DNA of 64,000 nucleotides from Patescibacteria group bacterium (GTDB lineage: Bacteria; Patescibacteriota; JACPGU01), in NCBI GenBank assembly GCA_022703645.1, contig JAKLDG010000001.1:75756-139755 (forward strand), read 5' to 3'. The notes under the pieces were generated by a model. That model made no database searches. It had not been told where the DNA came from and saw nothing but the letters and a program-made list of their open reading frames with translations. Numbering within the stretch: position 1 is the first letter of the stretch; each line of letters opens with the position of its first letter. Made by a program: the position numbers and the translations under genes. Shown here one piece after another: positions 4,241-62,826 of this stretch.

Positions 4241-6031
4241 ATGAAACAAGAAAAAGCTTCACTCGATTCTATGCGTCATTCAACGAGCCATCTGATGGCA
4301 GCGGCAGTATTAAAATTATATCCTGATACGAAATTTGCGATCGGACCGTCAATCGAAGACGGTTTTTACTATGATTTCGAATTTAGTAAACCTTTGGTTG
4401 AAGAGGATTTAAAAAAGATTGAGAAAGAAATGATTGATATTAAGAATAAAAAACACGCGATAGTTGGTAAACAGATTAGTTTTGATGAAGCTAGAAAACT
4501 TTTTAAAGATCAGCCTTACAAATTGGAACTAATTGATGGACTCGAAAAAGATGGCGAAAAAGAAGTTTCGGTTTACGAGCTTGGGAACTTTATTGATCTC
4601 TGTAAAGGTCCGCATCTGGACAACACCGAAAAAATCGGAGCATTTAAATTGATGTCATTAGCTGGCGCATATTGGCGAGGTGATGAAAAAAATAAGATGT
4701 TAACGCGTATTTATGGTACGGTTTTCCCAACCAAGGAAGAACTTCACAAGCACTTGGAATTAATCGAAGAAGCGAAGAAAAGAGACCACAGAAAATTAGG
4801 TCGTGAGCTCGATCTATTTCATATCGATGATCAAGTTGGGCTCGGGCTACCACTTTGGCATCCAAAGGGCGCGATGCTTTGGCGCGTAATCGAAGATTTT
4901 TGGTATAAAGAGCATCTGAAAAATGGCTATCAATTAGTCCGCTCTCCTCATATTGGCAACAGACGTCTTTGGGAAACTTCGGGTCACTGGGGTTTTTATA
5001 ATTCCAGCATGTACCCACCAATGGAAGTAGGGCAATCGCTTGAAGAAAGACAAGAAGGAAAGAAAGCGGAAGTAAGCGAAGAATATCTTTTGAAACCAAT
5101 GAATTGTCCTTTTCATGTTCAGATCTATAAAAATGATTTACGATCTTATCGAGAACTTCCAATGCGATGGGCGGAATGCGGAACGGTATATAGATTTGAA
5201 AAAAAAGGTGAATTATCAGGACTTACTCGTGTTCGTGGTTTTACCCAAGATGATGCGCATATAGTTTGTGCTAAAGAGCAAGTCGAAGAAGAATTGGAAA
5301 AGGTAGTTGATTTTATATTATTTATCTATAAATCATTCGGTTTCGATATCGAAAGTGTGAAAGTTTATCTTTCAGTACGTGATCCAGAGATTAAAAAATA
5401 TGCCGGTACTGACGAGGGATGGGCATTAACAGAAAGTGTGCTTGAAAAAGTCGCAAAGAAAAAAGGTTTAAATTATGATAAAGATATTGGTGGAGCAGTT
5501 TTCTATGGACCAAAATTGGATTTCAAAATCAAGGATTCTCTTGGACGTGAATGGCAATGCTCAACCCTTCAATTTGATTTCAATCTTCCAGAAAGATTTG
5601 ATATGACTTTCAAAAATGCGAAAGGCGAAGATGAAAGACCATATATGTTACATCGCGCGCTATTTGGGTCTTACGAAAGATTCATAGGTTTGTTAATTGA
5701 GCACTATGCAGGGGCATTTCCTTTCTGGCTGGCTCCTGTTCAGATAAAGGTTTTGCCGGTAAATGATAAGCTCAGTGATTACGTCAATGAAGTTGTCGCG
5801 AAATTACAAGCACAAGAATATCGTGTCGAAGTAGATAATAAGGAAGAATCTCTTGGCAAAAAAATCCGCAACGCTGAAATGGAAAAAGTGCCATATATGC
5901 TGGTAATTGGGGATAAAGAAAGAGATGAAGGGGTGGTTGCGGTTCGTTCGAAAAAAGATGGGGACATCGGGTCTTTGGATGTAGAAGAATTTATTGTGAA
6001 AATCAAAAAAGAAATAGAAGAGAAGAAATAG
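4241..6031 (+). CDS. thrS: threonyl-tRNA synthetase (lacks the N-terminal TGS domain)
   Basis: RHSTSHLMAAAV matches the HxxxH motif of the ThrRS second additional/editing domain, followed by a class II catalytic core and an anticodon-binding domain. It aligns with E. coli ThrRS from about residue 70. Confidence 0.9.
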   Translation: MKQEKASLDSMRHSTSHLMAAAVLKLYPDTKFAIGPSIEDGFYYDFEFSKPLVEEDLKKIEKEMIDIKNKKHAIVGKQISFDEARKLFKDQPYKLELIDGLEKDGEKEVSVYELGNFIDLCKGPHLDNTEKIGAFKLMSLAGAYWRGDEKNKMLTRIYGTVFPTKEELHKHLELIEEAKKRDHRKLGRELDLFHIDDQVGLGLPLWHPKGAMLWRVIEDFWYKEHLKNGYQLVRSPHIGNRRLWETSGHWGFYNSSMYPPMEVGQSLEERQEGKKAEVSEEYLLKPMNCPFHVQIYKNDLRSYRELPMRWAECGTVYRFEKKGELSGLTRVRGFTQDDAHIVCAKEQVEEELEKVVDFILFIYKSFGFDIESVKVYLSVRDPEIKKYAGTDEGWALTESVLEKVAKKKGLNYDKDIGGAVFYGPKLDFKIKDSLGREWQCSTLQFDFNLPERFDMTFKNAKGEDERPYMLHRALFGSYERFIGLLIEHYAGAFPFWLAPVQIKVLPVNDKLSDYVNEVVAKLQAQEYRVEVDNKEESLGKKIRNAEMEKVPYMLVIGDKERDEGVVAVRSKKDGDIGSLDVEEFIVKIKKEIEEKK

Positions 6032-11018: not shown

Positions 11019-11202
11019 CGTTGTTTTTTTAATAGTATTCGGTGCGATAAAGATATTGTAGAGCAAAAATGATGGTAAATCAATAAACAAAATTGTTAAA
11101 TGGTTACATTGCTACATTGCTAAGGGGGTGGGTAGGTACTGTTAAAAGTTTAAAGAATAATGTAGTAATTCAACAATGTGGCCATGTTAAGCCATAAAAG
11201 TA

Positions 11203-11231
11203 TTGACAAGAATAGAAAAGTATGCTAATAT
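11203..11231 (+). promoter_or_regulatory. sigma70 consensus-like promoter: TTGACA, 17 nt, TAATAT
   Basis: TTGACAagaatagaaaagtatgcTAATAT. A second TTGACA occurs at 11269. Confidence 0.5.
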
Positions 11232-11417
11232 ATGCATATAGTACAATATTTAAGACATAATGTATATATTGACAAAATATTAAAAATTGGCGATATTACT
11301 GCCTTTCATCTAGGAAAAATTAAAAAGACGGCTTTTAAATAATATTTATACCGTCGCCTATGAAGGGTAGCAATCTCGTCAATTTTTTAAAAAATTATCA
11401 CCTGAGGAGGTGAGAAC

Positions 11418-11519
11418 ATGGAAGCAGTAATTCCTTTCGCGATACCGATATTTGGTGTGTTCGTGTGGCATATGTTTACGTGCAGACCAAAACATCCCGG
11501 GCATGTAATCCGCCCGTAA
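11418..11519 (+). CDS. small ORF 1 (33 aa, hydrophobic N-terminus)
   Basis: GAGGAGGTG lies 6 nt before the ATG. Product: MEAVIPFAIPIFGVFVWHMFTCRPKHPGHVIRP. Confidence 0.4.
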   Translation: MEAVIPFAIPIFGVFVWHMFTCRPKHPGHVIRP

Positions 11520-11544
11520 AAAACAATCGGGAGGTGGTGGAGGT

Positions 11545-11688
11545 ATGTGTCAACAATGTCCAAAAGAGAAACGCGAAGGATGCTCATTTCTGCTTGATGC
11601 GGAAACGAGCAATCTCGCAGCGGGGGGAATTGATTTTTGCCTCGCAGAACACGAGATGAAGAATGTACGGAAACGCGCAGTAGCATGA
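11545..11688 (+). CDS. small ORF 2 (47 aa, CxxC-containing)
   Basis: GGGAGGTGGTGGAGGT lies immediately upstream of the ATG. Product: MCQQCPKEKREGCSFLLDAETSNLAAGGIDFCLAEHEMKNVRKRAVA. Confidence 0.4.
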   Translation: MCQQCPKEKREGCSFLLDAETSNLAAGGIDFCLAEHEMKNVRKRAVA

Positions 11689-11719
11689 AAAAATCAGAAA
11701 TGGAAAGGATGTGGAGGAA

Positions 11720-11806
11720 ATGTCAAATTTGGAAATTGCTGAGGTGGTTGCTGAAGAATTCGACATCACCATTCAAGAGGCATTGAGCATAATTCTTTCG
11801 AAGTAG
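11720..11806 (+). CDS. small ORF 3 (28 aa, acidic helical peptide)
   Basis: AAAGGATGTGGAGGA lies upstream. Product: MSNLEIAEVVAEEFDITIQEALSIILSK. Confidence 0.3.
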   Translation: MSNLEIAEVVAEEFDITIQEALSIILSK

Positions 11807-11831
11807 TTCTGATCACCCGAAAAGGGTTTTA

Positions 11832-11858
11832 AACCGCCTAGTAAAGGCGGTTTTTTAT
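11832..11858 (+). terminator. rho-independent terminator
   Basis: AACCGCC-tagtaaa-GGCGGTT followed by TTTTTATTTT. Confidence 0.8.
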
Positions 11859-11885
11859 TTTACCAAAAAATGATAGAATGAAGTT

Positions 11886-13937
11886 ATGTTTGTAGATATA
11901 GCCGTTAATACAAAAAGCTCAAAGCGTGATGATCTTTTTACCTACTCTATTCCTTCCGAATTAGAGAAAGATATTTTAGTGGGTCAAATGGTGATGATTC
12001 CGTTAGGCTCCAGAAAGGTGAATGGAATTATCATAAAAATTCACGATAAAAAACCTACGTTTAAAACGAAAGATATCGAGAAAATCATCGAACCAATCCC
12101 GATAATTGACGATAAACAAGTTCAATTAGCTTATTTTATCTCAGAGCATTATTGGTGCGGATTTTCTCAAGCGTTGTTTCATATGATACCGGCGAATTTA
12201 CGTAAAAGGAAGACGGCGATTTTTAAGAATTTAGAATCTAAAATAACAAATCTAGGAATGAAAGACAAGATTCTAGCTTCTAGATTCCAGCTTCAATTAA
12301 CTTCCCAACAGCAAAAAGCTCTCAAAAAAATTAACGATGCTTTGAATAGTAAAAAACCCGCAACATTTCTCCTCCACGGTGTTACGAATAGCGGTAAGAC
12401 AGAAGTATATCTACGCGCTTTTGCTCAAGCTTTGGAATCTGGAGGTAGCGGAATTTTTATCGTTCCGGAAATTTCTCTAACCCCGCAAAGCCTGGCAAGA
12501 TTTGAAGAAGTTTTTGGAAAAGACGGTGTTGCGCTAGTGCACAGCCAAATGAGTATTTCCCAAAGGCTAAAAACTTGGATAGAAATAAAAACCGGTAAGA
12601 AAAAAATTGTGGTTGGGTCGCGCAGCGCGGTATTTTCGCCGGTAAAAAACTTAAAAATCATGATTGTCGATGAAGAACATGATCTGATTTCTTTCAAATC
12701 CGATCAAACACCAAGATATGAACTTCACACGGTGGCAGAAAAATTGGCGCAGCTTTCGGGTGCAGTTTTGGTTTTTGGTTCGGGTACGCCACTGGTAACC
12801 AGTTACAAACGCGTGATAGATGGTGAGTGGGAGTATCTTTCAATCTCCGAAAGGGTTGATGGTTCACTTCCACCTCAAATCAAAGTTGTAAATATGGAAG
12901 AGGAAAAGCCAAATGGTGGAGACGGGATATTCAGCGAGTATTTCATCAAGGCTCTTGATATGGTGCTCAAAAATGGCAAACAGGCACTGTTATTCTTAAA
13001 TAGACGCGGAATGGCATCATTTATAATTTGTAATGATTGCAAGAAGATTTCGATGTGCGAGCAGTGCGATTCAGCACTCGTATTTCATTCCATAGATAAT
13101 AAAATGTGGTGCCATCATTGCGGGAGAAAATATCTGCCGCCAACCAGATGCGAAATTTGTGGAGGATTAGATTTTCGATTTCTTGGAAAAGGTACGGAAA
13201 AAATCGAGGAAGAAATCAAAAAGTATTTTCCAGATACCAGAATTGCGCGCATGGATCGCGATACAATGATTGATGATCGAGCTTATGATGAAATTTTTGA
13301 AAAATATAAAAAAGGCGAAATAGATATTCTTGTCGGGACTCAGATGATCGTGCACGGCTGGGATATTCCATCGGTAGATCTGGCGGCTGTTATTTCAATT
13401 GATGAATCACTTCTTATACCCGATTATACTTCAGAGGAAAAGGTTTATGAGCTGGTTACTCAGCTGGCTGGACGTACTGGTAGAAGTAGCGCCAGGGGGC
13501 TTTTAGTTCTGCAGACCGCTACGCCTGATATTTGGATATTTGACACGATCCAGAAAGGCGACTATCTATCTTTTGTTAAAAGGGAACTTCTGACCCGGGA
13601 AAAATTCGGTTATCCGCCATTTGGTCAGCTGATTAAATTGTCAATGTCCGGTTTTGACCGAACTGTGATTGAAAAAAAAGCGATAGAATTATTTGGAAAG
13701 TTGCAGGAAATTAAAAATAAATTAGGAGAAATTAAGGTAGAAATTATCGGGCCGATTAGCCCCTTAGTTGAACGTAAATACGGGAGATACTGGAAAAACA
13801 TAATCATAAAAACAAAAAATCAATCCCCCTTCACTAAAGTTACGGAGGACAGGGAAAACAAAAAATTAATTGAGGGATTATTGAACATGGTACCGAAAGA
13901 ATGGGTTATTGATGTAGATCCGATATCATTATTATAG
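11886..13937 (+). CDS. priA: primosomal protein N' (replication restart helicase PriA)
   Basis: N-terminal 3'-DNA-binding domain, Walker A GVTNSGKT, a DEEH box (IVDEEHD), Cys4/Cys4 zinc fingers (CNDCKK...CEQC...CHHCG...CEICG) and a helicase C-terminal domain. TGATAGAAT lies 6 nt before the ATG. Confidence 0.9.
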   Translation: MFVDIAVNTKSSKRDDLFTYSIPSELEKDILVGQMVMIPLGSRKVNGIIIKIHDKKPTFKTKDIEKIIEPIPIIDDKQVQLAYFISEHYWCGFSQALFHMIPANLRKRKTAIFKNLESKITNLGMKDKILASRFQLQLTSQQQKALKKINDALNSKKPATFLLHGVTNSGKTEVYLRAFAQALESGGSGIFIVPEISLTPQSLARFEEVFGKDGVALVHSQMSISQRLKTWIEIKTGKKKIVVGSRSAVFSPVKNLKIMIVDEEHDLISFKSDQTPRYELHTVAEKLAQLSGAVLVFGSGTPLVTSYKRVIDGEWEYLSISERVDGSLPPQIKVVNMEEEKPNGGDGIFSEYFIKALDMVLKNGKQALLFLNRRGMASFIICNDCKKISMCEQCDSALVFHSIDNKMWCHHCGRKYLPPTRCEICGGLDFRFLGKGTEKIEEEIKKYFPDTRIARMDRDTMIDDRAYDEIFEKYKKGEIDILVGTQMIVHGWDIPSVDLAAVISIDESLLIPDYTSEEKVYELVTQLAGRTGRSSARGLLVLQTATPDIWIFDTIQKGDYLSFVKRELLTREKFGYPPFGQLIKLSMSGFDRTVIEKKAIELFGKLQEIKNKLGEIKVEIIGPISPLVERKYGRYWKNIIIKTKNQSPFTKVTEDRENKKLIEGLLNMVPKEWVIDVDPISLL

Positions 13938-13963
13938 GGGCAGGTTTGAAACCTGCGCCCCTA
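13936..13963. repeat. GC-rich hairpin repeat GGGGCAGGTTTGAAACCTGCGCCCC, overlapping the priA stop codon
   Basis: The same hairpin sequence recurs at 42291..42319 inside a coding region. Confidence 0.7.
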
Positions 13964-13967
13964 CCTA

Positions 13968-13995
13968 TTGACTCGATTTTTAATTAATATATAAT
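13968..13995 (+). promoter_or_regulatory. sigma70-like promoter: TTGACT, 16 nt, TATAAT
   Basis: TTGACTcgatttttaattaataTATAAT sits directly upstream of the ORF-free GC-rich region. Confidence 0.5.
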
Positions 13996-14002
13996 CTAAT
14001 TA

Positions 14003-14494
14003 CATCGGCCGAATTCAAGATGCTCAGAAGTTGTCGTTCGTTTATGAGGCCCCCAGCTTACATAGAAAAAAGAACGATTCGAAACTTATCAAGAAGAGCA
14101 ATAAGGCCGAACACTACGTCGTTATTTTCAAGGCTTAAAAGAGTTTTGAAATGCATTAATTAAAGTTTTGACATGAAAAATCAATCATTTCTGGGGGCCC
14201 AAGAAAATTGGCTGAAGGGCATTCCTTAAAAAAGAGTACCTTTCGGCTGATAGGTTTATCCTCTTTTTAGAGGAGCGGGTTTTTAGGGGATGGACTGCCG
14301 ATCACAGTATTGCACGATCGAATGTACGCATAAAATAGTTTAGCGTCAGATGACGGCAGGAAAGATTTTTTATCCGTAGTACGGTCGCCAAAGAGCTGCT
14401 TGAGCGTAGGGCTCGCGACCACGTTTTACAAGGGGCCGAATGCCCCCCAAACTCTGTGCGCCGAGGATTCCTCGGCGCACTTTCATTTACTTTT
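14003..14494 (+). ncRNA. candidate structured ncRNA of unknown class, about 490 nt
   Basis: No ORF of 60 aa or more on either strand across 13938..14576, in an otherwise gene-dense window. GC is elevated. It has its own promoter and an intrinsic terminator. Long-range complementarity: GAGGCCCCCAG at 14046 pairs with CTGGGGGCC at 14191, and CTGCCG at 14295 pairs with CGGCAG at 14356, plus several local hairpins. No RNase P, tmRNA or SRP signature motifs were found. Confidence 0.35.
14456..14494 (+). terminator. rho-independent terminator
   Basis: GTGCGCCGAGG-att-CCTCGGCGCAC followed by TTTCATTTACTTTT. Confidence 0.8.
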
Positions 14495-14576
14495 CCCGGC
14501 CTTTTATGTTATAATATCAGGGAATAATTAAACAATAAAGCAAGAAATCAAAAAAAACAATAAATCAATATATTTC

Positions 14577-15035
14577 ATGAATAAATATAAATTAGTTGAA
14601 ACGAAAGATATAAAAAAGATCCCGAAGATTTTGCGAGAAAAATCAAAAGAAATTACCGAGATTACCCCGGAGCTATTAGATTTAGCCAAACAAATGAAAA
14701 AAATAATGAAAGAAAATAAAGGAGTAGGTATATCGGCAATTCAGGTTGGAGTGCCAGTACGTATGTTGGTAGTGAAAAATTGCGGTCAGGATATGATTTT
14801 TATTAATCCCGATATAATCCGTATGAGCAGACATGAAGTAGTTTACTCCGAAGGCTGTCTCAGTTTTCCGGAAGTTTTTCGCGAAATTAGCAGGCCTGAG
14901 AAAATTAAAGTTAAAGCAAAAAATGAAAATTTTGAAGATTTAGAGATCGAAGCGGAAGGATTGGTAGCGAGAACACTAGAACACGAAATTGATCACTTGA
15001 ATGGGATAGTGTTTTTGGATAGGGTAGGTGATTAG
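14577..15035 (+). CDS. def: peptide deformylase
   Basis: GVGISAIQVG, EGCLSFP and HEIDHLNG motifs. An extended -10 box TGTTATAAT lies at about 14503. Confidence 0.9.
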   Translation: MNKYKLVETKDIKKIPKILREKSKEITEITPELLDLAKQMKKIMKENKGVGISAIQVGVPVRMLVVKNCGQDMIFINPDIIRMSRHEVVYSEGCLSFPEVFREISRPEKIKVKAKNENFEDLEIEAEGLVARTLEHEIDHLNGIVFLDRVGD

Positions 15036-20489: not shown

Positions 20490-20516
20490 AAATCACGAAG
20501 CGATTTTTAGAAAATA

Positions 20517-20590
20517 CTAATATCTAAATTCTAAATCCTAAATTTGAAAATTAGAATTTTAGATTTGTTTAGAGATTAGATATTAGTGCT
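20517..20590. repeat. AT-rich palindrome: CTAATATCTAAATTCTAAATCCTAAATTT, loop, AGAATTTTAGATTTGTTTAGAGATTAGATATTAG
   Basis: Seen directly, between ssb and rpsR. Confidence 0.6.
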
Positions 20591-20661
20591 TAGAATTTTG
20601 ACAGTTAACATTGATAAACAGTAATAAAGAAATAATCTTTTAGAAATAATAATATAATCGC

Positions 20662-20868
20662 ATGAAAAACAAAATTTGTGTTTTTTGTTCAAAAGGAATC
20701 AAAGAAGTTGATTATAAGCAGGTAGAAGTCTTAAAAAGATCCACTTCTTTTCTTGGAAAAATCGAAACCAGGAGAAGAACCGGTGCTTGTGCTTATCACC
20801 AAAGACGCCTTGCCCAAGCTATAAAGCGAGCAAGACATCTGGCTTTAGTTCCATATATAAACAGATAG
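20662..20868 (+). CDS. rpsR: 30S ribosomal protein S18
   Basis: CVFCSKGIKEVDYK...AYHQRRLAQAIKRARHLAL. It is in the conserved rpsF-ssb-rpsR cluster. Confidence 0.9.
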   Translation: MKNKICVFCSKGIKEVDYKQVEVLKRSTSFLGKIETRRRTGACAYHQRRLAQAIKRARHLALVPYINR

Positions 20869-20957
20869 AATATTAATAATCTCAAATGTAATATGTTAAA
20901 TGTTAAATCTCTGGTATGGTTTTGATATTTTACATTTAAGATCTAACATAAAAATTT

Positions 20958-42049: not shown

Positions 42050-43762
42050 TTAATTAATTGTCTTAACCATATATGTATCTTCAAGTTTATATCCGATTTT
42101 TTTATAATATTCACGCGCTCCAACTCCGGAAATTACAGCGATTTTTTTATAACCCGCTTTCCTCGCTATTTGTTCAGCTTGGACAATTAAATTCTTACCA
42201 AGTCCCTTATGCTGCTTCGCGTCTTCTCCGATTTGTCCAACGTCGAGAGCCTGACCATATGTATGGACTTCACGAATGATAGCGGTTTCTGTAGGGGCAG
42301 GTTTGAAACCTGCCCCTACGGGTAGGCGTAACCGTAATAATGCATATAAATGAGAATGATTATCAATAAGTTCAAGGAATACTTCTTCACCGCCGGAGGC
42401 ATTGTATTCGATCTTATTTAATTTGGGCGTATACAATACGCCCCTACGAGATATTTTTGTTTTGTTGATTTCTTGTTCATTTGTTTCTTTGTCCTTGATT
42501 TCACGGCAACGGATACACTGGCACTGCCAACCCTCTTTTTGCGAATGATTATCAATAAGCTGTCTTAGATTTGTGGTTTTATTCCCTGCGATGATACTCT
42601 CTTCTGGAATATCGCGGATGAGGCGGCTGATGCGAACATATGGCGGAATGATCTTTTTTATATCACAAATTAGCTTTAGAAGTTGTTTATCTGTGTAGGC
42701 TTTATATTTTTTTTCTTTCCAGAGTTTATACAGATCAGAATCTTTGACAACAACGCAGGGATAAATTTTCAACTGATCCGGCTGGAAGTCTTGGCTAGAA
42801 AACAGGTCTTTAAACATTTGTAGGTCTTTCTTCAGATTTGAACCATAGAGTCCCGGCATCATATGATAGGAAACTTTAAATCCAAAGTCCTTCATAAGTT
42901 TGGTAGCGCGGATAGTTTCAGATACATCGTGTCCTCTGCGGTTCTTTTTCAACACTTCATTGTAGATACTCTGAACACCAATCTCGATACGGGTTGCGCC
43001 CATATCACGAAATTTCACAAGTTCTTTTTCAGTAATCAGATCAGGACGAGTTTCGAGAGTGAGACCGATAACTCGAGATTTGGTGGATTCATTTTTTGAT
43101 TGTTCAATCTGTAGCTGTCGTTTTAGTTCAACTAAATTCAACTTGCTATCTTGATATCTTGTTATCTTGTTTTTTTTCTTCTTTTGATAATTGATCATTG
43201 GGAATTGATTGAAAATTGAAAATTGAAAATTGTTGCAAGCCCTATAACATTCTTTCACAAACCAATATTGGTATTTAGTAGGCAGAGCATTAAAACTTCC
43301 TCCCATGATAATCAACTCAATCTTGTCCGTGGAGTGCCCGGATTTTTCGAGCGCAGTGAGACGAATTTCAATTTGGCGATAAGGATCAAAATCTGCGAGA
43401 ATAGCGCGCATCACAGCAGGCTCATTGGACAAATAAGATTTAGGCATATTCTTTTCGGTTGGACAATATAAACAATTTCCCGGGCAACCGTATTCCTTAG
43501 TCAGCACGGAAACAACGGCTACTCCCGAAAGGGTGCGCATTTTTGCTTTTCGCAATAATCTTTCAATATCTGAGTTTTTCTTAACCTTTTTCTTTTTCAG
43601 TAATTCTTCATAAACCTGAGTTAGCCCGTAGTTTGGCAGAGAATCTATCTTAAACTGCGTACTAATCTCGTTTTTCAGTATCATAAAATCGCGCAGCTTT
43701 GTTATTCCCCGTTCGCAAGCGCGAATAATCAGTTCTTGTTTTGCATTATTTATACTCTGCAT
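42050..43762 (-). CDS. Elp3-like radical-SAM plus GNAT protein (tRNA wobble-uridine modification family), with in-frame repeat insertions
   Basis: CPGNCLYCP radical-SAM cluster motif and a C-terminal GNAT domain (QHKGLGKNLIVQAEQIARKAGYKKIAV). The insert NNFQFSIFNQFP derives from the 7-mer repeat. The insert VGAGFKPAPT is encoded by the GC hairpin at 42291..42319. Confidence 0.75.
   Translation of the reverse strand: MQSINNAKQELIIRACERGITKLRDFMILKNEISTQFKIDSLPNYGLTQVYEELLKKKKVKKNSDIERLLRKAKMRTLSGVAVVSVLTKEYGCPGNCLYCPTEKNMPKSYLSNEPAVMRAILADFDPYRQIEIRLTALEKSGHSTDKIELIIMGGSFNALPTKYQYWFVKECYRACNNFQFSIFNQFPMINYQKKKKNKITRYQDSKLNLVELKRQLQIEQSKNESTKSRVIGLTLETRPDLITEKELVKFRDMGATRIEIGVQSIYNEVLKKNRRGHDVSETIRATKLMKDFGFKVSYHMMPGLYGSNLKKDLQMFKDLFSSQDFQPDQLKIYPCVVVKDSDLYKLWKEKKYKAYTDKQLLKLICDIKKIIPPYVRISRLIRDIPEESIIAGNKTTNLRQLIDNHSQKEGWQCQCIRCREIKDKETNEQEINKTKISRRGVLYTPKLNKIEYNASGGEEVFLELIDNHSHLYALLRLRLPVGAGFKPAPTETAIIREVHTYGQALDVGQIGEDAKQHKGLGKNLIVQAEQIARKAGYKKIAVISGVGAREYYKKIGYKLEDTYMVKTIN
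42291..42319. repeat. GC-rich hairpin GTAGGGGCAGGTTTGAAACCTGCCCCTAC located in-frame inside the Elp3-like CDS
   Basis: Perfect 13-bp stem. The same sequence occurs after priA at 13936..13963. Confidence 0.75.
43195..43243. repeat. 7-mer repeat segment (AATTGAAAATTGAAAATTGAAAATTG) in-frame in the Elp3-like CDS
   Basis: Its orientation matches the gene strand, so it is read as NFQFSIFNQF. Confidence 0.7.
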
Positions 43763-59214: not shown

Positions 59215-60993
59215 TTACAATGCTTTGGACCAACTGGCGAACGCGTCCCATTCTTCCATCGTGAAGTCGAGCTTATCAATCGCTTCTTTCATACTGAATT
59301 CGAGATTTAGAAAGGTAGTCACGCGGATCTTTTTGAATTTCTTAGGATTCGACTTCCACGTGCCTTTTTTGAAACCGAGCTTTTGAGCGCATGCCTGTTG
59401 AATGATATTCAGCTCATCCCAATTTTTCTGAAAGAATTCGCGGATTCTCGCGCATTTTTCGAATTGGTCTTTCAGATTTTCGGGACTGTTTGCGGTATCG
59501 CATCTTTCAGCTCCTACTCTCAAGTCAGTGTAGTTCAGTGGTGCTGCAGTCGGAGGTTCTTCATCGGTATTTTGTCTAATCAACACTTGCTTTTTTATTT
59601 CAATAGCAGACAGCAGCATTTCGATATCTTTGCGAAAAGCGTCGGCTTCGTCAGAAGTATCTTCCGCGATCTGTAAAAGTATTTCGTAAGCATAATTTTT
59701 TACTGCTGTATTGTCGCCTTTGCTATCATGGATAAGACCCATAAGTTCGAGTCTGAATGATTGAATAATATCCTTATCCAGTTTCGAATTCGCGGTTTCA
59801 TCTGTCGGTATTTCGGCAGGGGCTTCTTCGCTGATTTTAGCTCCTTCATTCAAGATTGCAGTTCTTATATAACCACACCTTAAACGCAGAGCGATAGCCT
59901 CAAATGAAGAGTCATGTTTGATTCCTTCCAGAATCTCAGCGGTCACTTCGAGAATGGTAGCGGGATTATCGGGGTTATTCGTGACGACTATATTGAGTGC
60001 TTTATCAAGCTCCGCAATATTGATATTCAGTGTTGCTGTCTGCTGTTCAGATGCGGTTTCCGGTTGAACGTTTTTTTCTGCTACCGGTTCAAAATAGTCG
60101 ATGAGATGTTTGACGCCTTCAGACCCATTATCTTTAAAGGACTCTTCGATAAGTTTCCTTGCCTGTTCAGTATCTTGAAGAATCATACCGGATTGAAACC
60201 CAATACTTCCATCCTGATAGAATAAGTCCGAGTTACACTTTGCGCCGAGAATCTTTTCCATTGCATGATTGAAGAGCTCTTTGCTCATGTCCGCTATATC
60301 GTACTTTACCGGTGCGGGTTCTTCGATCACGCTACTCAGCGCGTCGAATGCGTCGAGTAGTTCTTTTACTTCCGGAGAATCGTCATTCTGGAAAACAACA
60401 TGGGCTGATTTAATAATTCCCAACAGTACATCTTTTTCGCAATCAGGACGAGGGTTTTTCAGCTCTTCCAGCAAGTTTCTCCATACAACTATCATTTGAG
60501 CTTTGATATCGCCGGAAAGGGCAACAGTCTGCGTGGACCGTGTTGGATCTTCTGAATTACAGATCATAAGTTCCGCGGCAAGGAAGAGCGGAGTGTCGCA
60601 ATCTATACAGAATATATCGTACGATGAGTTTACGCATCCGCAGATTTTACAGATTCCGACAAATTCCATGTTTTTTTCGTATTCTGCGACTTCAAAAAGC
60701 GCTTGGTTGCATTCTTCGCAGAAAACCGCGCCGATCTTGTTTGCCGAACCGCAGAATCTGCATATAACGGCTTCATTCGCTGCCTGTTCTTTGAGGCTTT
60801 CTATCATCGCGCTTATGTTTTCTCTCAGAGTCCAGCTATCTCTACTTACGGACGCGGCTTTTTCCTGAATTTCCTTTCCTTGTTTCAGGTTCATGTACAG
60901 CAGGACCAATCCGATAATTCCGATGAAGATGAGCGCAATGACGCCCCAGTAAATCGTTAACTGGTTTCCAAGTGCAAGAAGATCTGGCATCAT
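59215..60993 (-). CDS. membrane-anchored double zinc-ribbon hypothetical protein
   Basis: N-terminal transmembrane helix, then CRFCGS...CEEC and CKICGC...CIDC zinc ribbons, then a long helical region. Confidence 0.5.
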   Translation of the reverse strand: MMPDLLALGNQLTIYWGVIALIFIGIIGLVLLYMNLKQGKEIQEKAASVSRDSWTLRENISAMIESLKEQAANEAVICRFCGSANKIGAVFCEECNQALFEVAEYEKNMEFVGICKICGCVNSSYDIFCIDCDTPLFLAAELMICNSEDPTRSTQTVALSGDIKAQMIVVWRNLLEELKNPRPDCEKDVLLGIIKSAHVVFQNDDSPEVKELLDAFDALSSVIEEPAPVKYDIADMSKELFNHAMEKILGAKCNSDLFYQDGSIGFQSGMILQDTEQARKLIEESFKDNGSEGVKHLIDYFEPVAEKNVQPETASEQQTATLNINIAELDKALNIVVTNNPDNPATILEVTAEILEGIKHDSSFEAIALRLRCGYIRTAILNEGAKISEEAPAEIPTDETANSKLDKDIIQSFRLELMGLIHDSKGDNTAVKNYAYEILLQIAEDTSDEADAFRKDIEMLLSAIEIKKQVLIRQNTDEEPPTAAPLNYTDLRVGAERCDTANSPENLKDQFEKCARIREFFQKNWDELNIIQQACAQKLGFKKGTWKSNPKKFKKIRVTTFLNLEFSMKEAIDKLDFTMEEWDAFASWSKAL

Positions 60994-61572
60994 AATTCAT
61001 TACCTCGACTTTCGTAGGATTTTTCAGGCCTTGCCTGATTATGAAGAATACAATTATTTTATTTTCACCTTTTTTGCAAAAGGGTTGAACAATGCTAAGA
61101 ATTAAAGTACATTTAATGGGTTAATTATAGAGGTTTTTTACCATGTTGTCAATGATAATCGCATAACAAAGCGGTTTTTAATCTATGTATAGCGATGTAT
61201 CTCCGCAGTATTATGATATATTGCGAGGGGAAATAATGTTTTTTTCAAAGTTAAAAAATGAGCGGAAACTTTATATTGATGGCATTGAAGATGAATAAAA
61301 ATAAAAAAACCGCTTAGTGTAAGCGACGTTTTTATGTCCTTATGGTGATAATGGCTTGAATAAGCAATAATATCAAAAAACTAGACCAGATAGTCTAGTT
61401 TTTTAGTTCATGTTATACCGAAAAATACCAAACAAACAATCATGGGGAGTTCCAGCATGGGAAGGGTAGCTTGCTTTAATGGGGCGGGGAGTGCTTGCTT
61501 CGCTTTATGTCTTTTTTGCTATGATTCTTGTATATTAAGTTCTCCCGTGGCTGGAAAGATTTTGAGATGTTC

Positions 61573-62826
61573 TTATTTCGCCAATAACCACTTCCAAAGA
61601 GGCAGGAAGGTTATTTTCTTGCCGTTGACCTGTTTTTCTTCTTCTCGGCCGTCAAAGACCAATATAGTGCCTTTATTGAGGTTGTATTTGTTCAGTGCTT
61701 CTAGTAATCCATTTATTTCTCTTTCTTTAGTTTCACTATTAGAAACATTGTCAGTCACTTGGATTGCTTCAACTATTTTTCTGCCCTCTTTTAATACAAA
61801 ATCACACTCATATTTATCCTTATGATAGAAAATCTCTTTATTTCTGTTCTTTAGTTCTATAAAAACAAGGTTTTCCAGTAGTTTCCCTTTGTTTTCTGAA
61901 AAAGCGAATGAAACAGCATTGACCAACCCTGTATCTATGGCATAAATCTTTCTATCGTTGATTATTTGCTTTTTTAACGAATAATCATATTTTGGAACGG
62001 AAAAATTGATGTATGATTCTTCCAAATAATCAATATAGCTTTTGACGGTAGAAACGCTATTGAATTCCAATACTTTCTTCAAATTATTAAAGCTGATTAA
62101 GGAAGAGATATTTGATAGCAGGTAAAGAGAAAGCTCTTTAAATGCTTTGGTTTCTTTGATATTAAATCTAATCAAAAGGTCTTTTATAAGAATGTCTTGA
62201 TAGATTTGGCGAAGTTCCGCCTTGTTTTTGCTTTTTACTATTTCAGGAAAACCGCCATATTCAATATACTCCTTTAAATACCTATTCATCAAAGACGATT
62301 CTTCGGTAGTATAATATTTTTTGGTTTCAAAACTTTTATATTTTAATAATTCTTGAAAGCTAAAAGGATAAAGTTCTATTTTTAAGTGCCTGCCAGTTAG
62401 AGAAGTGGCCAATTCCGAGCTTAATAGTTTTGCATTGCTTCCTGTAACGAATATCTTATATCCGTTGTCAAACAATCTTCTGACAAACTTTTCCCATCCA
62501 TAGACATTTTGGATTTCATCAAAGAAGAAAACTTTTTGTTTTCCATAGGCTTCAAGAAATATCTCATACAGAGTGGCAAAACCCTTATTTTCAAAGCCAA
62601 TCAAGCGGTCATCTTCAAAGTTGAGATAATAATATCCTTTATAGTTCTGTGATATTTGCTTGAGCAAGGTGGACTTTCCGCTTCTTCTTACCCCGCTGAT
62701 AACCGATATTTTCTTGTTTTCAAGAAAGCTCTTTGGTACTTCTCGGGGAATATAATCAAACCTTTTTTCAAAGGTTTTTCTTTGGTCTAGCACCACTTGC
62801 TCAATTATCTTTTTATCCAATGCCAT
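61573..62826 (-). CDS. COG1373-type AAA+ ATPase (AAA_14 plus DUF4143 architecture)
   Basis: Walker A GVRRSGKST, Walker B FFFDEIQ and a C-terminal DUF4143-like region. Confidence 0.7.
   Translation of the reverse strand: MALDKKIIEQVVLDQRKTFEKRFDYIPREVPKSFLENKKISVISGVRRSGKSTLLKQISQNYKGYYYLNFEDDRLIGFENKGFATLYEIFLEAYGKQKVFFFDEIQNVYGWEKFVRRLFDNGYKIFVTGSNAKLLSSELATSLTGRHLKIELYPFSFQELLKYKSFETKKYYTTEESSLMNRYLKEYIEYGGFPEIVKSKNKAELRQIYQDILIKDLLIRFNIKETKAFKELSLYLLSNISSLISFNNLKKVLEFNSVSTVKSYIDYLEESYINFSVPKYDYSLKKQIINDRKIYAIDTGLVNAVSFAFSENKGKLLENLVFIELKNRNKEIFYHKDKYECDFVLKEGRKIVEAIQVTDNVSNSETKEREINGLLEALNKYNLNKGTILVFDGREEEKQVNGKKITFLPLWKWLLAK

Follow-up and report, generated by a model that had tools for sequence, protein, structure and literature searches.

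Does the longest stretch of DNA between genes in a compact bacterial genome carry an RNA gene of its own, or is it the remnant of something else? The question is raised by a spacer in a window of 64 kb (the whole stretch of DNA that was analysed, whose numbering is followed here) from a member of the Patescibacteria (CPR), whose next relatives by PriA reach at most 73% identity, one of them being labelled candidate division CPR3. The genome is compact, with about 0.9 Mb in total and a contig of 867 kb. The spacer lies between priA (11886..13937, + strand) and def (14577..15035, + strand), the latter followed by fmt, and with its 639 nt (13938..14576) it is the longest intergenic region of the window. 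An earlier note, made from the letters of the DNA, had described it as an ORF-free, GC-elevated region with its own promoter, long-range helices and a terminator. The features so described were all found in the sequence, with coordinates slightly off in places, and the remark that spacers in this window are usually under 150 bp holds roughly, two further long gaps having proved to contain small genes. The reading that we prefer, to which we give about even chances, is that of an orphan non-coding transcription unit, in which a promoter would be followed by an RNA of about 487 nt and a terminator, carried on an insert of about 555 bp. We set out below the evidence for this reading together with the alternatives on which each piece of evidence bears.

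The base composition of the spacer agrees with the elevated GC that had been noted. Its GC content (0.407) is the highest among the intergenic regions of the window longer than 120 nt, the rest of which range from 0.19 to 0.34. For the core of the spacer (14002..14494) the value is 0.44 against a coding mean of 0.389, and the maximum within the spacer, 0.51, is reached at 14300..14499. A spacer that is both long and GC-rich in an AT-rich genome is a classic signature of an RNA gene. Such outliers in GC and length have been used as predictors of non-coding RNA in the approach of the Breaker laboratory (e.g., PMC11109978). Promoter, terminator and the standing of the spacer as an outlier in length and GC all exceed chance expectation in this window, and the folding does so just moderately.

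Promoter, terminator and the predicted transcript

The signals that delimit the putative unit all lie on the + strand.

13968..13995, + strand: sigma-70-type promoter, TTGACT-16-TATAAT, matching 11 of 12 consensus positions
near 14002, + strand: predicted start, placed from the promoter
14002..14488, + strand: predicted non-coding transcript of about 487 nt, its ends placed from promoter and terminator
14456..14494, + strand: intrinsic terminator with an 11-bp stem (9 G-C pairs), loop AUU and tail UUUCAUUUACUUUU; pair probability 1.0

The promoter stands exactly where the earlier note had read it, and matches this good number six in the 64-kb window when both strands are counted. All five others of the same grade fall within intergenic DNA or at its border, and at least four aim at a neighbouring gene. 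The terminator, likewise claimed to be strong, consists of a perfect stem-loop at 14456..14480 (GTGCGCCGAGG-ATT-CCTCGGCGCAC, then TTTCATTTACTTTT). Including it, the window has five terminators with a perfect stem. Four are situated between genes or no further than about 60 nt from the end of one; the one considered here sits 519 nt beyond the stop codon of priA without an intervening ORF. A U-tail follows its stem on the + strand only, the - strand being without one. In quality, both signals match those at real genes of the window. A promoter and an intrinsic terminator are therefore found on the same strand and enclose no coding capacity, the arrangement by which a non-coding RNA gene is recognised, and it is from these two signals that we infer transcription and the ends of the transcript.

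Coding potential of the region

As far as coding can be excluded, the region is non-coding. That 13938..14576 has no ORF of 60 aa or more on either strand was confirmed, the longest being 51 aa (- strand) and 47 aa (+ strand). The six frames of the region gave no match in Pfam, and a concatenated six-frame query gave none against 5.8 billion protein clusters at E<=10. The proteins encoded in the corresponding spacers of relatives left no trace in the region by tblastn, and an exact look-up of its six small ORFs found none called by any pipeline. Decaying pseudogene DNA, the alternative named in the earlier note, is thus unsupported by protein similarity in any frame; the remnant of an insertion, to which we return below, is the weaker form in which that idea survives. 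When genetic codes 4 and 25 were applied, a - strand ORF of 128 aa appeared; it was rejected, since code 11 gives a normal reading of the neighbouring genes and since both the promoter and the terminator belong to the + strand.

One small frame deserves separate attention, as it opens with the first AUG that the predicted transcript contains.

14020..14163, + strand: 47-aa basic ORF, first AUG of the transcript, judged non-coding

It could be argued that the unit is an mRNA which encodes a small protein (this 47-aa peptide or the product of a different micro-ORF) and ends in a long structured 3' UTR. A 47-codon ORF at the first AUG of a transcript would arise with a chance that we estimate at about 4%, and small ORFs are carried by the inserts at the same junction in two relatives (L006 and L018). 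The ORF has no Shine-Dalgarno motif, which is not decisive since only 8 of the 51 genes in the window have one and many look leaderless. Its codon usage, however, speaks strongly against translation: with a score of -0.216 it falls below every one of 3000 47-codon segments sampled from real genes (mean 0.275, sd 0.13), and the four small genes known in the window also score higher, between 0.01 and 0.35. No homologue was found by phmmer among 1.84 billion representative proteins, just as none was found among the protein clusters mentioned above, and no pipeline calls it. The AUG at 14020 is paired in a helix of the predicted fold (P = 0.84), and the transcript would not be leaderless, unlike those of many genes in the window. 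We therefore regard a small-protein mRNA as very unlikely, and proceed with the non-coding reading.

Insertion at the priA-def junction

The priA neighbourhoods of eight relatives (PriA identity 63-73%) were compared with that of the window. In one of them (L098, PriA 64%) the priA-def junction is empty and only 80 nt long, and contains a conserved def promoter, CTTTTATGATATAATAT, overlapping the stop codon of priA. From this empty junction and the conserved promoter it follows that approximately 13938..14495 is an insert, and the same junction makes the boundaries of the transcription unit coincide with those of the insertion. A palindromic hairpin, the promoter, a body without ORFs and the terminator make up the whole of the insert, and two features mark its ends.

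13937..13961, no strand assigned: palindromic hairpin GGGGCAGGTTTGAAACCTGCGCCCC at the left insert junction, its first base being the last of the priA stop codon
14486..14517, + strand: def's own promoter, TTTACT-18-TATAAT, outside the element; right boundary, where homology with relatives resumes

The seven other relatives have unrelated DNA at this junction, as follows.

L001: tRNA-Asn, tRNA-Glu and a gene of 114 aa
L002/L003: membrane-like peptide of 117 aa
L004: Y1_Tnp/RAYT-like gene of 199 aa
L005: tRNA-Leu and two small genes
L006 and L018: small Shine-Dalgarno-led ORFs and a terminator, then a RAYT-like gene

These inserts share no similarity with the insert of the window or with each other. 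On the contig of P0003 two genes are called at this spot. Judged by such comparison of sequences, the element is a lineage-specific insertion of about 555 bp at a hypervariable priA-def junction. As a separate observation, the unrelated and apparently fast-changing DNA found at this junction in the relatives would be expected of junk or mobile DNA no less than of new genes.

The conserved promoter at the right boundary also bears on a different explanation, namely that the structured RNA is a long 5' leader through which the def-fmt operon is regulated, an attenuator or riboswitch whose expression platform would be the 14456 terminator. The element is co-oriented with def and fmt and lies directly upstream of them, and a strong terminator after a structured RNA is what such a leader would have. 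On the other hand, def has its own promoter between this terminator and its start codon: the motif TTTTATGTTATAATAT (14502..14517) is kept in all relatives, including the one without an insert, so that relatives manage without the inserted DNA. No alternative pairing that would act as an anti-terminator to the terminator stem was seen, and no riboswitch or T-box model matched. A def leader has in our view only a slight chance of being correct.

The presence of Y1_Tnp/RAYT-like genes at the same junction in three relatives (L004, L006 and L018) raises another possibility, a non-autonomous derivative of the IS200/IS605 or REP/RAYT kind, similar to a PATE or MITE, that would depend on a Y1 transposase for its movement. 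Hairpins are indeed present at both ends of the insert, and the left one, which has no U-tract, has a near copy at 42294..42318. The ends of IS200/IS605-REP family elements share their hairpin, whereas the two end hairpins of this insert are unrelated in sequence. The copy at 42294 lies inside an Elp3-like coding sequence that shows no change of length against solved Elp3, no transposase remnant was detected, and no second copy of the insert body was found in the window or in any other scan. Such a mobile derivative is hardly to be expected here.

The insertion itself could be inert, and this is the main rival of a non-coding RNA unit. According to this explanation the DNA came from a mobile element or was a foreign fragment, its cargo gene was lost, the terminator was kept since it shields def from read-through out of priA, the promoter is leftover or fortuitous, and any transcript is functionless. 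It is in keeping with the hypervariable junction, where the inserts of relatives are mutually non-homologous, with the orphan status of the element, and with a GC content above the genome mean that could reflect foreign origin. As no U-tract follows the hairpin behind priA, transcripts of priA may likewise end at the 14456 terminator. However, the absence of any protein trace in any frame at E<=10 would require very deep decay, while the promoter (11/12) and the 11-bp terminator stem are pristine. Neither terminal inverted repeats nor target duplications of the insert were found, only AT-rich promoter look-alikes. From a genome as compact as this one (about 0.9 Mb) inert DNA would be expected to disappear, and the folding favours the + strand. 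Taking both sides together, we consider an inert remnant rather unlikely, and we continue with the orphan RNA unit, which draws support as a functional unit from the compactness of a genome in which inert DNA is not expected to persist.

Predicted fold of the RNA

When the terminator is included, the folding z-score against shuffled sequence is -4.2 to -4.45 for the + strand and -1.6 to -1.7 for the - strand; when it is left off, the values are -2.7 and -0.9, respectively. This asymmetry between the strands supports an RNA gene. The two halves differ: the 3' half reaches a z-score of -2.83, attained by 4.4% of 320 control windows of 250 nt, and the AT-rich 5' half, at -1.4, is barely structured. 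The folding signal predicted in this way is suggestive rather than exceptional, and modest without the terminator. With confident elements defined by a pair probability above 0.8, the predicted fold upstream of the terminator comprises the following.

14005..14110, + strand: long 5' hairpin domain of 105 nt, closed by UCGGCC/GGCCGA; helix P 0.81-0.91
14127..14150, + strand: hairpin UUCAAGGCUU-AAAA-GAGUUUUGAA, with three G-U pairs; P 0.96
14207..14251, + strand: 13-bp hairpin AUUGGCUGAAGGG / CCUUUCGGCUGAU, enclosing a further helix of 4 bp; P 0.94
14260..14273, + strand: hairpin CCUCU-UUUU-AGAGG; P 0.97
14277..14424, + strand: GC-rich central 3' domain of ambiguous fold, with candidate helices
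14295-300 / 14354-59, + strand: candidate helix CUGCCG/CGGCAG; P 0.4
14383-88 / 14415-20, + strand: candidate helix GGUCGC/GCGACC; P 0.6
14432..14446, + strand: hairpin GGGGC-CGAAU-GCCCC, then single-stranded CCAAACUCU; P 0.96

The 5' hairpin is predicted to bury the AUG at 14020 in the helix UGCUC/GAGCA and to expose an apical loop, CCCCA, at 14051..14055. Owing to its three G-U pairs, the hairpin at 14127..14150 would form on the + strand only. It may be added that several of the confident helices contain G-U pairs and hence belong to the + strand only. Two of the local hairpins listed above, at 14260..14273 and 14432..14446, are among those that the earlier note had pointed out. Its two longer pairings came out differently. 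For CTGCCG at 14295 both partners exist, with the second at 14354..14359 instead of 14356 and a pair probability of 0.4. For the long-range pairing of GAGGCCCCCAG (14046) with CTGGGGGCC (14191) the complementarity is real, with 9 perfect base pairs inside a 16-nt arm that matches at 81%, but the helix GGCCCCCAG/CUGGGGGCC (14048-56/14191-99) has an ensemble probability of only 8%. Forcing it costs +1.7 kcal/mol, and it is mutually exclusive with the better local 5' hairpin, with which it competes. Among the loops of the confident hairpins there is no GNRA or UNCG tetraloop. When the RNA was paired against 62 gene starts with duplexfold, the duplex energies equalled those of a reversed-RNA control, and no target emerged.

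Known RNA families and homologues

The covariance-model check against Rfam that had been proposed with the first description was run. None of the 4227 models of Rfam 15 matched anywhere in the whole window at gathering thresholds, and sub-ranges of 901, 316 and 221 nt searched at E<=10 returned noise only, at 19.3 bits or less and far under gathering. For the loci of relatives, searched at gathering thresholds as well, this hunt for a matching family yielded nothing more than noise. At E<=10 no model of RNase P, tmRNA, SRP, 6S, OLE, ROOL, GOLLD, HEARO, raiA, T-box or riboswitch was among the matches, nor, in the three sub-ranges, was any group I or group II intron model including RF00028. ARAGORN found neither tRNA nor tmRNA in the region, and no tmRNA at 80% stringency either. 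Rfam and ARAGORN thus agree with the earlier failure to see RNase P, tmRNA or SRP motifs, and no known family is present; nor was a description of such an RNA found in the literature.

The suggestion of a highly divergent version of a known RNA finds no backing here. It would make the element a divergent universal RNA (RNase P RNA, tmRNA, SRP RNA or 6S RNA) or, in another form, a tRNA gene interrupted by a group I intron. The latter merits a word. Patescibacteria have group I introns at tRNA position 35/36 that are missed by standard tools (PMC13011429), and two relatives (L001 and L005) carry tRNA genes at this very junction, for which reason ARAGORN was also run with introns allowed. Nothing was returned at default or 90% stringency, and the lone call at 80%, whose acceptor stem does not pair and whose anticodon would be AUU, is implausible. 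The hairpin at 14432-46 resembles a T-arm, but its loop has 5 nt and no acceptor pairing comes after it. The insert shows no similarity to the tRNAs of the relatives. The chance that a universal RNA or split tRNA has been overlooked is accordingly close to nil.

Homologues were sought more widely. Searches with blastn and nhmmer against the loci of 11 relatives returned none, and the element is absent from the junctions of eight relatives together with their flanking DNA of roughly 100 kb. Against phages and plasmids blastn gave nothing meaningful. Pattern scans of viral contigs gave no homologue, the eight matches being chance palindromes in GC-rich phages, and the lone match in a metagenome scan was a chance one in a GC-rich coding sequence, the organism itself not being returned. 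Six degenerate patterns spread across the element found nothing in a genome-collection scan. This negative is a weak one, since the scans need exact patterns and the organism is missing from the collections scanned. The earlier note had taken a lack of conservation in relatives as a sign of decaying DNA; as far as this can be tested conservation is indeed lacking, the eight relatives being empty or unrelated at the junction. Three assemblies that bear the element (including L007 and L008, from the same organism) are 100% identical over 10 kb and consequently carry no population signal.

These results and the fold bear together on the idea, also put forward at the outset, of an unrecognised conserved class of large, complex RNA akin to OLE, ROOL or GOLLD, whose fold would depend on long-range helices. 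A length of about 490 nt, elevated GC, lack of an ORF, and an own promoter and terminator would all suit it, as would the 9-bp GC-rich long-range complement at just 1.7 kcal/mol above the minimum free energy fold. No known family matches, and the insensitivity of the homologue searches leaves it some room. Nevertheless, the element is missing from eight relatives' loci and their flanks, its long-range helix is predicted with low probability, its confident hairpins lack the tetraloops, and its z-score is modest with a 5' half that is barely structured. The suggestion is therefore not borne out, and we do not take the element as a member of a conserved large structured RNA class, such membership having a small probability. 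Equally small is the probability of a bolder variant, in which CPR3-type Patescibacteria would have a structured RNA family so far unrecognised and the element would be its first member to be sighted, a self-contained mobile cassette of promoter, RNA and terminator whose transcript would toggle between two folds predicted to be nearly isoenergetic, the 5' hairpin or GGCCCCCAG/CUGGGGGCC. Homologues of such a family would be missed by pattern searches, as the lineage is barely sampled.

A proposed role for the element

If the orphan transcription unit is real, its working may be pictured as follows. RNA polymerase would start near 14002 from the near-consensus sigma-70 promoter and would halt at the terminator stem-loop, releasing an RNA of about 487 nt. 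At its 5' end this RNA would form a hairpin of 105 nt in which the only early AUG is buried; an AT-rich middle would follow, and the 3' part, of about 290 nt, would be GC-rich and full of hairpins. Function and mode of action are equally inferred: the RNA would most likely act in trans as an ordinary bacterial regulatory RNA specific to a strain or species, possibly through base pairing or protein binding by the exposed CCCCA loop at 14051-55 and by CCCCCCAAAC at 14443-52.

A real and functional element would be among the very few non-coding RNA genes proposed for CPR beyond the universal ones, and it would present the case of a streamlined 0.9-Mb genome gaining an RNA gene at an insertion hot spot. 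At present it is a candidate from a single organism, whose main use is as a mapping target for metatranscriptomes from the digester samples of origin and as a marker of the hypervariable junction.

Comparison with known systems

The element shares with OLE (RF01071), ROOL (RF03087) and GOLLD (RF01998) its length, its lack of ORFs and a GC content elevated relative to the genome. ROOL and GOLLD are often found near tRNAs or mobile DNA, and the priA-def junction holds tRNAs in relatives. It differs in being shorter than all three, in matching none of their covariance models at any threshold, and in that its candidate long-range helices are predicted below the level of the confident ones. Those classes are defined by covariation across many species, whereas the element stands without homologues found. 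In the GC and length approach (PMC11109978), to which it corresponds as an outlier in both respects among the intergenic regions of the window, regions stay candidates until covarying homologues are found, and here none have been.

With IS200/IS605 and REP-RAYT systems the element has in common that Y1_Tnp/RAYT-like genes occur at exactly this junction in relatives, and that the insert is bounded by hairpins and, like members of that family, shows neither target duplication nor inverted repeats at its ends. It departs from them in its dissimilar end hairpins, in having no transposase or remnant of one, and in that no further copies were detected.

Another parallel in outline is offered by species-specific bacterial sRNA or ncRNA genes that have a sigma-70 promoter and an intrinsic terminator, a long example being RNAIII of Staphylococcus aureus, which has 514 nt, encodes delta-haemolysin and is conserved across a genus. 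The small ORF of the element looks non-coding, unlike that for delta-haemolysin, and RNAIII occurs genus-wide whereas the element was found in one organism only. As in genes of this kind, a short non-conserved ORF lies near the 5' end and the phylogenetic range is narrow. Like RNAIII-like species-specific non-coding RNAs in general, the element would form an independent intergenic unit of about 500 nt with many hairpins and a C-rich apical loop.

The priA–def junction and its left edge

Within this CPR lineage the junction between priA and def (window 13938..14576) is hypervariable, as seen in a comparison of the window with the priA loci of seven relatives (L001, L002, L004, L005, L006, L018, and L098). 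In L098 the junction is empty, and everywhere else it is filled by DNA segments that are unrelated to one another. The fillings in the relatives include tRNA genes, RAYT-like Y1 transposase genes (L004, L006, and L018), and small ORFs that are led by Shine-Dalgarno motifs and possess their own promoter and terminator. The sole conserved part of the junction is the def promoter, TTTTATGTTATAATAT.

At the left edge of the insert in the window lies a near-perfect palindrome of 29 nt, TAGGGGCAGGTTTGAAACCTGC(G)CCCTAC, which is present in two copies (13935..13964 and 42292..42320) that differ by 3 mismatches over 25 nt, where the chance expectation is 0. The second copy lies within a gene for an Elp3-like radical-SAM/GNAT protein (42050..43762, − strand) and encodes PVGAGFKPAPTE there. 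Alignment to a solved Elp3 (6iaz_A) gave no length change at this segment of the protein, and thus this copy is no obvious in-frame insertion.

At the priA locus of a more distant relative (L101), whose PriA is 52% identical to that of the window, def and fmt are absent, and priA is followed by a 747-nt stretch (5023..5769, GC 0.44) with only one called gene (40 aa) and then by rpsP. This stretch has no similarity to the priA–def element of the window and may be a decayed gene.

Long gaps elsewhere in the window

The 796-nt gap upstream of priA (11091..11885) is not empty: three small ORFs, each with a strong Shine-Dalgarno motif, lie in it, and its AT-rich 5′ part (approximately 11173..11400) is 69–75% conserved in L002, L004, and L005. 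The second-longest gap of the greedy gene set (60994..61572; 579 nt, GC 0.337) is entered by a + strand ORF of 127 aa (61442..61825) and carries a perfect promoter directed at the gene 59215..60993, whose 5′ leader would therefore be about 120 nt long. Another apparent gap (20490..20957, 468 nt) contains a 68-aa gene that ORF lists cut off at 70–90 aa overlook.

Features located in the gaps

ATG at 11418, small ORF, 33 aa, strong Shine-Dalgarno
ATG at 11545, small ORF, 47 aa, Cys-rich, strong Shine-Dalgarno
ATG at 11720, small ORF, 28 aa, strong Shine-Dalgarno
11831..11853, terminator upstream of priA
20662..20868, rpsR-like (ribosomal protein S18) gene, 68 aa, identified by sequence
61152..61124, − strand, promoter TTGACA-17-TATAAT

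Gene starts and leaders

The rpsR-like gene appears to be leaderless, and a TATAAT ends 4 nt upstream of its ATG. The def gene is leaderless in L001, L002, and L004, but in L005 and in the window a leader of about 60 nt precedes it. Throughout the window, a Shine-Dalgarno-like motif is found at only 8 of the 51 gene starts, and many starts have a TATAAT-like box 4–10 nt upstream of the start codon; taken together, these features suggest widespread leaderless or Shine-Dalgarno-independent translation.
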